Origin: Amphiscolops sp. MND2022
Taxonomy: Eukaryota
Assembly (NCBI GenBank): GCA_964187785.1
Contig: OZ076409.1
Location: 48,424,001 to 48,488,000 of the forward strand
Direction: 5' to 3'
Length of the DNA stretch: 64,000 bases
This document shows, one piece after another, positions 57,805 to 64,000 of the stretch. The position numbers and the translations under genes are program-made. Position 1 is the first letter of the stretch, and each line of letters opens with the position of its first letter. The notes beneath the pieces were generated by a model that made no database searches, was not told the DNA's origin, and was given only the letters and a program-made list of their open reading frames with translations.

Positions 57805-57990
57805 CTTTGGTCACGTGACTATTCCATATTTGGAAATGTTTACGCCTCGTTTTCCATAAAAGGAAGACATTTCCTTTTAAGGTAATGTTTGTGCGCTGTC
57901 ATTCAAAATTTGTATGTCATCCTTCCTTTTTAGGTAATGATTGCATTTCCTTTTATGGAAATCACGTGACTATTCCTTTTAAGGTAACAA
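57805..57990. promoter_or_regulatory. Divergent promoter with six CArG boxes and two TCACGTGAC E-boxes
   Basis: CC(A/T)6GG at 57824, 57854, 57873, 57925, 57949 and 57975; E-boxes at 57811 and 57962. Confidence 0.7.
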
Positions 57991-58037
57991 TTCCATCTTT
58001 TCAGATTCATTTTGTTCAACAAAAACACAACGTTCAG

Positions 58038-58637
58038 ATGGCTGCTGTAATGATGCAAGTTGTTCCAAATTTTTACTCTGTATACTCTACAAAGAGTGTA
58101 CACATTTGTGCAAACACATATGAAAAGTATCTTGTCAGCAAAGACTATTGTGTTGCACAACACGAAGATTCCATGTGTTCTGTTCCCAATTGTAAATATC
58201 ACATTTTGCTCATTGCAGAGAAGGATATCAATGTCTTGATGGAAAAATTGGACACTTTTTGTTTTACATATCAATTGGTCGACTGTCTTTATACATTATT
58301 CAAGTATCGCTTTGATGGAAAGATTGTTACCAAAAATGGACAAGTGTTTGACAATATTGAACGAGCTGTACGATTCAATCAACGCCACAAGACGATTGAA
58401 AGGATGCCGAGTATAGCAAAAAAGAGATTGTTGCGTAAAAAATACAAGAGACATTTACTGAGTTCGTTGCAAAAGACAATTTCAACACAGACGAGTGGAT
58501 CAGTTTTCGCAGACAGGATTGAACAAGTTAAAAAGACAAAATTTGAAGTAGAACTAATAAAAATTGTAGATTGTTTTTTAGATGGTTACGGTAATTATGA
58601 TAGTAATTTAGTATCTTTTAAAATTAAATCTTTGTAA
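58038..58637 (+). CDS. 199-aa accessory protein, homolog of the palindrome-arm 192-aa ORF
   Basis: Likely start MAAVMMQ; shared motifs YH(I/V)L, V.CLY..F, QT.G and DGYG..D. Confidence 0.8.
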   Translation: MAAVMMQVVPNFYSVYSTKSVHICANTYEKYLVSKDYCVAQHEDSMCSVPNCKYHILLIAEKDINVLMEKLDTFCFTYQLVDCLYTLFKYRFDGKIVTKNGQVFDNIERAVRFNQRHKTIERMPSIAKKRLLRKKYKRHLLSSLQKTISTQTSGSVFADRIEQVKKTKFEVELIKIVDCFLDGYGNYDSNLVSFKIKSL

Positions 58638-58638
58638 A

Positions 58639-58821
58639 CTAACCACTGTTTTCTTCAACGAAATGAGACTTGTAGAGGTCAATGGGAAGTCTCAACATGA
58701 CAATAAATAGACCAATGAGAGCAGCAATTGCAGCAACGGCTAGTAGGGACAACAAGAATGCTCCAATAGTATAAATCGTCCACTTTACTAAGTCACAAAA
58801 GTCGTCGGAACACTTGCTCAT
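58639..58821 (-). CDS. 60-aa hydrophobic membrane protein
   Basis: ATG start, long hydrophobic stretch, abuts the convergent ORF. Confidence 0.55.
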   Translation of the reverse strand: MSKCSDDFCDLVKWTIYTIGAFLLSLLAVAAIAALIGLFIVMLRLPIDLYKSHFVEENSG

Positions 58822-58856
58822 TTTTGACTGAAATTAAAATGCACACTTTTACAAGT

Positions 58857-60710: not shown

Positions 60711-61402
60711 TAGACGTCGTAGTTGCTTTCAATGATTCCGCTCTTGCTCGATATAAAGTAGCGGTCCTTATACAGTTCGTACAGTTCGTTGTGACTGAGG
60801 TTGACAATTTCTGTCAATACAAACTGATTTCCCCTATATAGAAACTTTTTCAATGAAAAACAACAATTCTTGTCTTTTTCAAAGCGGAAAGACAAACGCA
60901 AATGACGATCAGTATGCTCTTTTATATCTAGATAATAGTGTGAGAAGAGTTCGTCCTTCCACAGCGTAAAGCCAATCTCTTGTAATGGTTTCGGTAGGGG
61001 GTATAGAGTTGCCTTTCGTGCGTGGTCGTACTGTTTTAAAAAGTGACGCAGTCTGTTGAGGGTCGCAGCGAGCTCTTTTTTCGTGATGGAAATTTCCTCG
61101 TCAAGGAAAAAGCGTTGTTGAGCTTTCAAGTCGCAAAATTTAAAAACTTTGATTGCAAATAAATTTTTATTGGACCCCTTGCTGACTCGCACGAGACGAT
61201 TGTCCGTCTTTGTAATGTCCAATATGTTGCGATAAAAGTACGAGTCAACGTCAGCTTCGTCCAAAGTTTGTTCTGGAACGTCTTCGTAAATTGAATACAG
61301 CAAAGATAGAGATGGAAGTTGTTGTTTAACAGACATGAACTGCTCTAAAAGAAAGTTTAAATTAAAATGAATAAAGAAATTTAGTGTAGTGGATAAAAGC
61401 AA
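60710..61402 (-). CDS. Tandem PC4-like domain protein (start probably MSVKQQ)
   Basis: LDITKTDNRLVRVS..FAIKVFK..ISITKKEL and LDIKEHTDRHLRLSF..FSLKKF..VNLSHNEL. Confidence 0.7.
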   Translation of the reverse strand: MLLSTTLNFFIHFNLNFLLEQFMSVKQQLPSLSLLYSIYEDVPEQTLDEADVDSYFYRNILDITKTDNRLVRVSKGSNKNLFAIKVFKFCDLKAQQRFFLDEEISITKKELAATLNRLRHFLKQYDHARKATLYPLPKPLQEIGFTLWKDELFSHYYLDIKEHTDRHLRLSFRFEKDKNCCFSLKKFLYRGNQFVLTEIVNLSHNELYELYKDRYFISSKSGIIESNYDV

Positions 61403-61439
61403 GGCCTACGTCGCCGCAATATTATGACAATGCGATAAA

Positions 61440-61830
61440 CAGCACGTGACTTTGCTTTTAACCACTACGCTAACAGTGTGGTTTATTTCCATTTATGGAA
61501 AGTAATTAAAGATGAAAGGGTAACCAGCTGTCACCTACCCACGCTATTTAACTTTTATCGTTGGATAATTAATCCAATTGAGAGGTTTTCCCAGACTTAT
61601 CGACGTCTTTGCGAGGGAATTTGTTCCACTTGAGTGATTTTCTCAGACACTGTGGCGTCCCCTGAGGGACACGTGTTCCACTTGAGCAATTAACTTTCAA
61701 GGAGATTAAAAGTGATTGACAGGTACTTGAGAGGGAACGCTGAGGCTAGTGCGTAATTACTTTTTCCTTTTATGGTAGGCTAACTTTTCCTTTTATGGTT
61801 CAATGACTCACGCCTTCCGTATATGGATGA
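61440..61830. promoter_or_regulatory. Divergent promoter upstream of pPolB with CArG boxes, E-boxes and an AP-1 site
   Basis: CArG at 61489, 61766 and 61789; near-CArG CCGTATATGG at 61817; TGACTCA at 61804; CACGTG at 61443 and about 61669. Confidence 0.65.
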
Positions 61831-61983
61831 GCAATTACATAAACAGAATTTTCAACCATTTTCATTTCATTATTCATTTCACTTTTCTGCACTTTAGTTG
61901 CTTGCTCTCAGATACTTACAATTTTCTGTTACAATTCCATTTACTTGCTTTCAGATAGCGACTTGTTACATTATCTGCTCAAG

Positions 61984-64000
61984 ATGCCTGCACTTGATCG
62001 AAATGCAAAGACTGCCTGCGACAATTGTGGAACTCTAGTCTCAAAACAAAACCTTGCAAAACACAAAAAGAGATGTTCAGTTGGGACATTATATTGCTCT
62101 CAATGTCCCAATTTCTCAACCAAGTCCCAAAATGACTTGAATTACCACATTGCAAAGAAGCATGGGACTTCCAACCCTAAAACGACACACATTTGTAAAG
62201 TGTGTAAAGAAGAATTCGCTGGCTTTTATGCACTACGTCAACACAAAAGTAAAATGCACGGTCTTAATTTGAAGAAAGACGATTCGTCTCCCCTTGTGGA
62301 TGATATCGATGATGAAAGTTTCAAAGAAGAGCTACGTGCATGTGAACACTTTCTCGTGGACTCTGAATTTGAACGTGGGCGACATAAAGTGTTTAATTAC
62401 GCTGTGGAGACACTAAACACGGAAATTGTCAATGATAAACTTGATAATTTCTTTTACAACTTGAAATGTGCCGCAAAAGTTAACCTCGCATTTGGATTCA
62501 TTTTAAAAAATTTGGAAGATGGACGTTACCGATATTTCTACGCGCACGAAAACAATACTCTGTTGGATCGATCTCAACTTGTGTGCACCAAAGACGACTT
62601 GACAAAATTGAAAAACATTGTCAATCAAACTGACGTAATCGAATCTTGTACCGCAGAAAGGATGAATACAAAGTGGAGGTTTTATAAGCTCACCAATTTA
62701 ACTGTGTTTGCTGCTTTGCTCAAAGACATTCCCATGGGTTGTAGAGATGCTGTACTCCCTGATCCACTACTGAAAAACCATACTGTGAACTGTTTGACAT
62801 TCGAGCAGAACACTAGACAACCCTATAACGACAACTTGTGTTTATTCAGAGCATTAGCACTTCATCTCCACGGAAATGAAAAATTGGAGGAAGAGACTTG
62901 CAAATTGTTCAATTGTTATTTGGAAAAGAAAGGAGGAATAGAACCAGCAACCTTCCAAGGAGTCTGCGTGGACGATATTCCTCTTGTTGAAGACCTGATT
63001 CAAGTCAATATCTTTCTTTACGATATCGATATTGTGGATGGATCAATTGTTGGTGAACTCGCACGGAGGAGTGTTCAGAAGTATTGCAACACTGTCAGAT
63101 TATTGCGTTACAATAACCACATTTGTTACGTCTCCAATATCAATGCATTATTTAAAGCTTATCGTTGTTCAACTTGTAACCAGTTTTTCAACAAAACTGG
63201 AAACTTGGAACGTCACTTGGTAATTTGCAAGGATCGGATCAAACACGTTTATCCGAGAAATGTTTATCAATTGAGGGAAACGCTGTTTGATAAACTGGAC
63301 TTCTTTTCCATACCTTACACAAAAGAACAGCAATTGTTCAAAAACTTGGCCGTCTTTGACTTTGAATCAATTTGTGTGAGAGAGGAACAATTCAAGGATA
63401 CCGAGACAACACAGTGGATTGGGAAGCACGTGCCGATATCTGTATCTATATCGTCCAGCTTGATTGAAACCCCATTATTTCTTTGCAATTCCAACCCGCA
63501 AGATTTGGTTGAATCTTTTGTTGTTGCTCTGGAGAGTTTAGCCGCACAGAGCAAAGCTCAAATGAAACTACAGTTTTTAGATATCGAGACCAGCATCAAA
63601 AGCCGTCTTAATGCAATTTTTGCTGTACTCAATGAAAGACGTGGTCCACGAGAAACTGTGGTGGAATTTGAAGACGAATGTCTTGAGGTTGAAGAAAAAG
63701 ACGTTTCTACTCAGTTCTTGCAAATGCAAAAGAATCAACTCCTTGACTTGCAGGAACACTTGGAAAGATATTGCAACGTGTTACCAGTCTTTGGCTTCAA
63801 TAGTTCCAAATACGACATTAACCTTATCAAGCGTTATTTGTTACCCTTATTGGTTAACGAGAGAGAGCTGGAGCCAACAGTAATTAAAAAAGCGAATCAA
63901 TTTGTCTCTTTCAAGTTTGGAGATGTTCAGTTGCTGGATATTCTGAATTTCTTGGGTGGAGCAACCAGCCTTGATTCTTTCCTCAAAGCTTACAAGACGT
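61984..64000 (+). CDS. polB: Protein-primed family B DNA polymerase, N-terminal 672 codons (partial; absent from ORF track)
   Basis: Open from ATG 61984 to the window end. Zn fingers, DNLCLFRALA..HICYV (OTU-like), ExoI AVFDFES, ExoII VFGFNSSKYD and LLDILNFL. Confidence 0.93.
   Translation, partial: MPALDRNAKTACDNCGTLVSKQNLAKHKKRCSVGTLYCSQCPNFSTKSQNDLNYHIAKKHGTSNPKTTHICKVCKEEFAGFYALRQHKSKMHGLNLKKDDSSPLVDDIDDESFKEELRACEHFLVDSEFERGRHKVFNYAVETLNTEIVNDKLDNFFYNLKCAAKVNLAFGFILKNLEDGRYRYFYAHENNTLLDRSQLVCTKDDLTKLKNIVNQTDVIESCTAERMNTKWRFYKLTNLTVFAALLKDIPMGCRDAVLPDPLLKNHTVNCLTFEQNTRQPYNDNLCLFRALALHLHGNEKLEEETCKLFNCYLEKKGGIEPATFQGVCVDDIPLVEDLIQVNIFLYDIDIVDGSIVGELARRSVQKYCNTVRLLRYNNHICYVSNINALFKAYRCSTCNQFFNKTGNLERHLVICKDRIKHVYPRNVYQLRETLFDKLDFFSIPYTKEQQLFKNLAVFDFESICVREEQFKDTETTQWIGKHVPISVSISSSLIETPLFLCNSNPQDLVESFVVALESLAAQSKAQMKLQFLDIETSIKSRLNAIFAVLNERRGPRETVVEFEDECLEVEEKDVSTQFLQMQKNQLLDLQEHLERYCNVLPVFGFNSSKYDINLIKRYLLPLLVNERELEPTVIKKANQFVSFKFGDVQLLDILNFLGGATSLDSFLKAYKT

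Follow-up and report, generated by a model that had tools for sequence, protein, structure and literature searches.

The 64,000-nucleotide stretch of Amphiscolops sp. MND2022 DNA analysed here (contig OZ076409.1, positions 48,424,001 to 48,488,000; hereafter the window) carries a 17.4-kb Polinton/Maverick element, which spans window positions 49552 to about 66930 and has its right end about 2.9 kb beyond the window. Both intergenic regions of the element (57649-58037 and 61337-61983) are divergent, and a gene for an epidermal growth factor (EGF)-type ligand of ErbB receptors lies between them. A first-pass annotation had proposed that this element forms a self-activating circuit, in which an encoded EGF receptor (EGFR) ligand switches on the element's own promoters through SRF- and AP-1-type sites. 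Our analysis points instead to a host-derived growth-factor gene standing beside separately evolved SRF-type promoters, which is probably the best explanation overall. The window element belongs to a family named A, and five further Polinton families are named B to F. The features on which the argument rests are as follows, in window coordinates (aa, amino acids; ORF, open reading frame; pPolB, protein-primed DNA polymerase B).

59299..59547, minus strand: EGF-type ErbB ligand gene, 82 aa.
57795..57984, no strand: left divergent promoter, with a minus-strand TATA at 57795, E-boxes at 57812 and 57963 and six CArG boxes.
57824, 57854, 57873, 57925, 57949 and 57975, no strand: left CArG boxes, the first of which, TTCCATATTTGG, is identical in family B.
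61441..61498, no strand: leftward arm of the right promoter, with an E-box at 61443 and a CArG box at 61489, 153 bp from a 208-aa ORF.
61766..61826, no strand: pPolB-proximal cluster, with CArG boxes at 61766 and 61789, TGACTCA at 61804 and a one-mismatch CArG-like site at 61817.

The 82-aa protein consists of an N-terminal hydrophobic segment (19-residue hydropathy up to 2.29) and a Cx7Cx5Cx10CxCx8C module, with an Arg before the sixth Cys (Cys6) and a stop six residues past it. A PDB sequence search gave 12 matches, led by HB-EGF (E=2.8e-7); apart from one EGF-like peptide of an ant, all are ErbB ligands, in agreement with the EGFR-ligand type first annotated. Pfam returned nothing for the window ORF at E<=0.05, and the family D version passes this cut-off. 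A first fold, from a shallow 16-copy alignment, left the EGF part at a predicted local distance difference test score (pLDDT) under 50; a second gave 71, and the top 10 fold matches of the model were nine ErbB ligands or chimeras and the ant peptide, none at E<=0.001. Like animal ErbB ligands such as HB-EGF, epigen, spitz and lin-3, the protein has the six-Cys spacing, the Arg before Cys6 and a single EGF module; unlike them, its gene has no intron, C-terminal anchor or tail, and the sole hydrophobic segment is N-terminal. Soluble EGF-type candidates do exist, according to the accessible part of PMC4914847. The ORF was matched by all 150 copies scored from 632 candidates, 22 of them at 100% including the window copy, and a second allele occurs in family A near 70% identity; the family is young and abundant. 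As a separate observation, the EGF and polymerase N-terminal alleles are more variable (60-75%) than the adjoining ORFs (~90%) in L061-L080, which suggests module exchange between subfamilies.

As judged from its substitution pattern, the EGF module is under purifying selection. Thirty-eight copies, chosen from the 150 and weighted to the divergent allele, were fetched, and 22 had a full frame; between the two allele groups (11 versus 11 copies, one of which, L098, was assigned by its second residue and seems to be in the wrong group) the net ratio of nonsynonymous to synonymous substitution (dN/dS) was 0.18 for residues 36-82. Between family A and families D, E and F, the proportion of synonymous differences (pS) is saturated at 0.83-1.06, against 0.27-0.34 for nonsynonymous ones (pN). 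Moreover, 26 of 60 short relatives keep the full six-Cys spacing, and the Arg before Cys6 is retained in 25 of these 26.

A search of 1.84 billion representatives gave 98 matches, many of them short hydrophobic-plus-EGF proteins of 30-55% identity, and one, P0049, with the shape of a type I membrane precursor. Searching the 1.07-Gb host genome with P0049 led to a gene at C5:29.808-29.819 Mb in which EGF halves, membrane segment and tail lie on different exons. A 282-bp intron of this gene separates Cys4 from Cys5, and a transmembrane exon lies just behind the EGF module. These are the two marks of ErbB ligands in the accessible text of PMC1618406, which also states that the Arg before Cys6 contacts the receptor. 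The element genes show neither mark, being intronless and ending just after the module, before the membrane anchor. Their modules are identical to that of the host at 21/44 (A), 31/44 (D), 21/44 (E) and 25/44 (F) positions, and both the Arg before Cys6 and the host ligand's aromatic C-terminal tail persist in all four families. Because the host gene has the intron and membrane exon while the element versions are intronless, host-like and truncated, the simplest reading is that the element gene would be a captured spliced, truncated copy of the host ligand mRNA. An EGF-module tree, which held no poxvirus rows, joins family D to the host gene with a support of only 91/86. No relatives with genomic context outside the host genome were found in viral or metagenome contig collections; short relatives occur in protein collections without genomic context, and for one type the best host-genome match is only 39%, and therefore such genes occur in other genomes.

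The promoter boxes stand out from background. CArG boxes number six in the left region and three in the right, against 0.03 and 0.05 expected (p=0.0002 each, 5000 dinucleotide shuffles), and three occur in the 49.8 kb of host DNA in the window; CACGTG occurs twice in each region (p=0.001 and 0.002 by shuffling). The clusters of CArG boxes and E-boxes first annotated in both divergent regions are therefore confirmed, and the TGACTCA noted on the pPolB side is indeed present at 61804, but it is single and at chance level (p=0.085), so that AP-1 was rejected as an enriched feature. The strict Ets pattern [AC]GGA[AT]G[TC] is absent from both family A promoter regions, with looser sites not excluded, and because no such site stands beside the boxes, a specific link from ERK through ternary complex factor is weakened. 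Like serum response elements of the c-fos/egr1 type, the element has CC(A/T)6GG boxes near a TATA, above chance and conserved, with bZIP-type sites nearby; unlike them, it has no adjacent strict Ets site, and its boxes form homotypic clusters of up to six in bidirectional promoters. Among viruses, the promoters of human T-cell leukaemia virus type 1 and cytomegalovirus are examples that bear CArG boxes. Individual CArG boxes are intact in 14-27 of 35 aligned copies per region, and only 10 of the 29 copies aligned there carry the second right-hand E-box (61670). Variants common to at least 4 copies avoid the right-hand CArG boxes (1/40 sites versus 99/607, p=0.009, sites and copies not being independent in the variant tests). 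The rate of rare variants is 0.050 in motifs versus 0.046 outside them, so that old copies lose boxes at the background rate, as is expected after insertion. Flanks common to several boxes suggest local duplication.

Comparison with family B gives a stricter measure of conservation. Genes common to A and B are saturated at synonymous sites (pS 0.77-0.79), and their intergenic DNA is alike only in short islands, several of which are CArG boxes. Family B has a CArG box before the 192-aa homologue in 8/8 copies, before the 208-aa homologue in 6/8 (in these at about 154 bp, against 153 bp in the window element) and before pPolB in the 7/7 copies that reach it, the numbers being 1-3 on the left and 1-4 on the right versus 6 and 3 in family A. 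On this comparison the CArG boxes are conserved, kept at the same promoter positions across saturated divergence.

Three further observations concern this intergenic DNA. In family B, TGACGTCA sites lie upstream of the pPolB CArG boxes, and a ~178-bp repeat of varying unit number, most units of which carry TGACGTCA, stands directly before these boxes (L102-L108). A ~30-bp module (GTTCCACTTGA, a spacer and TCTCAGACA) has been retained in A and B in spite of their saturated divergence, and each of the two families has it more than once (window 61623-61650 and 61675-61686; right intergenic regions of family B, L101-L108). Its cores are presumably NK2-like and Smad-like, or it may bind an element protein.

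The ATPase tree divides the six families into two clades, (C,(A,B)) and (D,E,F). The EGF module is found in four families of both clades, at different positions: together with promoter CArG boxes in A and E and without them in D and F, while B and C have CArG boxes without EGF. In B and C the EGF motif was found in 0/14 stretches, nor was it found in further stretches of one copy each, the far end of the B polymerase lying outside the scan; family C has CArG at its terminal-side promoter in 5/6 copies. In D, E and F, EGF is the first gene, 216-492 bp from the terminus, and no CArG box lies between the terminus and the EGF ATG in 15/15 copies (one without a terminus). The polymerase-side intergenic region has no CArG box in family D (2/2 copies) or F (1/1), and in family E it has two CCATATATGG boxes (1/1). 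In the window, the 66-bp gap upstream of the EGF gene is likewise without CArG. As far as these sequences indicate, the EGF gene and the CArG promoters have evolved and segregate independently, and an obligate circuit is not supported. Of the circuit first proposed, the parts thus stand, in that the ligand and the boxes are real and constrained and the host has SRF and an EGFR-like gene, but the co-occurrence test that the first-pass annotation suggested fails at family level, since EGF and CArG are uncoupled in 4/6 families.

Several points weigh against a constrained, host-derived ligand gene beside independent promoters. EGF residues 1-35 have a net dN/dS of 1.24 (11 versus 11 copies), and the variant test is not significant in the left promoter (2/60 versus 16/235, p=0.25). 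The absence of CArG is thinly sampled, with one copy each for promoters of E and F and two for D, and with six families a weak EGF-CArG association could hardly be excluded. Furthermore, 13 of 18 inner branches of the EGF-module tree are open, and the tree gives neither the number nor the direction of the captures.

The host encodes what we take, from reading the sequences, to be orthologues of SRF and MEF2, and SRF is the expected reader of CC(A/T)6GG in animals; it very probably binds the element boxes. An EGFR-like gene lies on host C3, and no full-length host-type EGFR was found. We propose that the elements took up a spliced copy of the host EGF-ligand mRNA, truncated immediately behind the module with loss of anchor and tail, and that the N-terminal hydrophobic segment would lead the protein into the secretory pathway, to be secreted or type II-anchored. 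The ligand would then most likely activate host EGFR on the same or neighbouring cells and, by analogy with poxvirus growth factors, bring about a proliferative state suiting DNA replication and integration; that it acts as an agonist favouring proliferating cells is, on this analogy, rather likely. Several families would drive their divergent promoters via CArG boxes read by host SRF, and where both features occur, in A and E, promoter activity may be raised further by EGF signalling, neither feature needing the other.

The strongest alternative, which we consider possible though less likely than not to hold, is that the CArG clusters select cell type or state through SRF and MRTF/myocardin-type cofactors, in muscle, migrating or mechanically stressed cells, with no relation to EGF-ERK signalling. 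Multiple CArG boxes and E-boxes without an Ets site fit muscle or cytoskeletal promoters, and this is the composition found here, together with an NK2-like CACTTGA module conserved between A and B. However, bZIP-type sites adjoin the pPolB boxes in both A (TGACTCA) and B (TGACGTCA), and such sites beside CArG are more typical of signal-induced promoters.

A closed positive feedback, in which element EGF acts through EGFR-ERK and SRF on the element's own promoters, including that of the EGF transcript, is unlikely. Family A does combine EGF with the most boxes (6+3), family E also has both, the host has the two ends of the pathway in SRF and the EGFR-like gene, and the TGACGTCA sites upstream of the pPolB boxes in family B make an immediate-early-like layout. 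The EGF gene is moreover the last of a leftward block whose first promoter has an E-box and a CArG box, and could be transcribed by read-through from this right promoter. Against such feedback stand the uncoupling in 4/6 families, the lack of CArG directly upstream of any element EGF gene examined, the lack of a strict Ets site in the family A promoters, the chance-level TGACTCA and, in the window copy, an ATTAAA at 59591 that separates the EGF gene from the upstream ORF; this ATTAAA is absent from the divergent-allele copies shown. Even for families A or E taken alone, a closed loop is doubtful.

Somewhat less likely again is that the EGF protein is not a mitogen at all, and rather a decoy or partial antagonist, or a membrane-tethered ligand serving to prevent superinfection or to dampen the wound signalling of the host. 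It lacks the anchor and tail of the host precursor, the length of its hydrophobic segment would allow an uncleaved anchor, and the family A module is identical to the host's at fewer than half of its positions; yet the receptor-contacting Arg and the aromatic C-terminal tail are kept in all four EGF-bearing families. That both features are passengers, the gene having been captured neutrally and the boxes belonging to an AT-rich unit that was duplicated locally and multiplied along with a young element, is highly improbable: the shared box flanks and the background-rate loss of boxes in old copies would fit, but such loss is expected after insertion, and this view is already largely refuted by purifying selection on the EGF module and by the retention of CArG positions across saturated divergence.

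A host-derived ligand gene beside SRF-type promoters has partial counterparts in known systems. Transcription from poxvirus promoters is carried out in the cytoplasm by viral enzymes, and SRF cannot act on them. Poxvirus growth factors (vaccinia VGF, myxoma, Shope fibroma) are, like the element protein, small virus-encoded EGF modules, and theirs bind ErbB receptors (accessible text of PMC1618406); the weak fold matches of the element protein include the 80-aa rabbit fibroma growth factor (E=0.26), and vaccinia induces EGR-1 via MEK/ERK, according to the part of PMC5923434 available to us. Unlike in poxviruses, the carrier here is an integrated Polinton, and because the module is closest to this host's own ligand, the Polinton EGF appears, from sequence comparison, to be a separate capture. 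Nematode Mavericks carry host-derived genes, proteases and kinases (Widen et al. 2023, as summarised in the accessible part of PMC11131425). Unlike that cargo, the gene described here encodes an extracellular signalling ligand, and a single genome holds it at differing positions in four families that belong to two clades. Neither EGF ligands nor SRF sites were found to be reported for Polintons in the literature searched, most subscription papers and supplements lying outside that search; EGF occurs 0 times in PMC11131425, and PMC4914847, in its accessible part, notes the low tree signal of the EGF domain and makes no mention of transposons or viruses. By analogy, the best reading would be a poxvirus-style growth-factor gene in Polintons, host cargo in Mavericks being already known from nematodes.

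It is difficult to see why a transposon with a purely intracellular life should conserve an extracellular ligand, and the retention of this ligand in four families of two clades therefore suggests that selection favours the manipulation of cells nearby, as it does in poxviruses. To our knowledge, it is an open question whether animal Polintons are infectious viruses or only transposons. Since one family alone contributes at least 150 copies of the EGF gene, and further families add to these, an element-derived ligand could affect host growth or repair, and the conserved CArG boxes are a first lead, open to experiment, to the way in which Polinton genes become active. It is rather improbable that in A and E the two features form a feed-forward switch, in which a Polinton EGFR agonist raises transcription of its own polymerase and capsid block and primes neighbouring proliferating or wound-responsive cells; if it were true, the repeated EGF capture across clades would record in the genome that Polintons live in this animal much as viruses do, passing from cell to cell.

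The other features of the element are as follows.

49552..50139, no strand: left terminal inverted repeat, 588 bp, beginning AGTAGT.
50177..55358, minus strand: Polinton core block with protease, putative major capsid, putative penton, integrase and packaging ATPase.
56246..56255, no strand: GTCACGTGAC palindrome, 70 bp upstream of a 150-aa ORF and inside a 134-aa ORF.
57070..57648, minus strand: 192-aa ORF, first leftward gene of the left promoter, possibly PC4-like.
58038..58637, plus strand: 199-aa ORF, first rightward gene of the left promoter, starting at 58038.
58846..59273, no strand: tandem array of ~31-bp units between the 199-aa ORF and the EGF gene, without CArG.
59614..61336, minus strand: three leftward ORFs (192, 121 and 208 aa) between the right promoter and the EGF gene.
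61984..64000, plus strand: 5' part of the pPolB gene, 1444 codons in all, continuing in L081.

The left terminal repeat is 98.8% identical to its inverted copy at L081:3344-3928 (about window 66930), and the element is flanked by a 6-bp target duplication with one mismatch; the AGT-repeat start, the 6-bp duplication and a length within 15-20 kb are all typical of Polinton/Maverick elements. In the core block, Pfam identified the integrase (rve, 6e-11) and packaging ATPase (Pox_A32, 3.5e-7) expected of a Polinton. The Peptidase_C5 match of the protease ORF was weak (E=0.0065) and below the cut-off, the capsid and penton labels are our assumption from ORF size and order, the putative penton being split over two ORFs in the window copy, and a 447-aa ORF had no informative match in protein-library and Pfam comparisons. 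The pPolB frame has polymerase motifs at residues 870, 1174 and 1274, read directly, which we take to be motifs A, B and C of family-B polymerases and which mark it as a protein-primed polymerase; library searches gave Pfam zinc-finger matches only, and none for the C-terminal part. Pfam had no match for the three leftward ORFs at 59614-61336.

The 192-aa ORF at 57070-57648 has an Atlas score of 0.85, with PC4 in 31% of cluster members, which is a lead only, and its frame is open for ~31 codons further upstream without an ATG (57649-57742). A 250-aa reading of the 199-aa ORF from an upstream ATG at 57885, which would place three CArG boxes inside the coding sequence, was rejected: this ATG occurs in only 9/20 copies, family B homology starts at MAAVM, and the ATG is probably not the start. 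The ~31-bp array differs between the two EGF alleles. The CACGTG of the GTCACGTGAC palindrome is kept in 28/30 aligned copies, and a CCAAT lies nearby (window 56246-56290), a layout that to our eye resembles the USF plus CCAAT arrangement of the adenovirus major late promoter. At family D ends (L126:1190-1330 and others), a tRNA-like stretch between the terminus and the EGF gene was detected by ARAGORN at a relaxed threshold only. Some Polinton copies are rearranged, nested or internally duplicated, in part with the left promoter duplicated (L101:6505-7904, L108:9277-9901, L115, L117, L129 and L157), and the host DNA at window 1-9751 contains a large palindrome with arms of ~4 kb and 88-99% complementarity.

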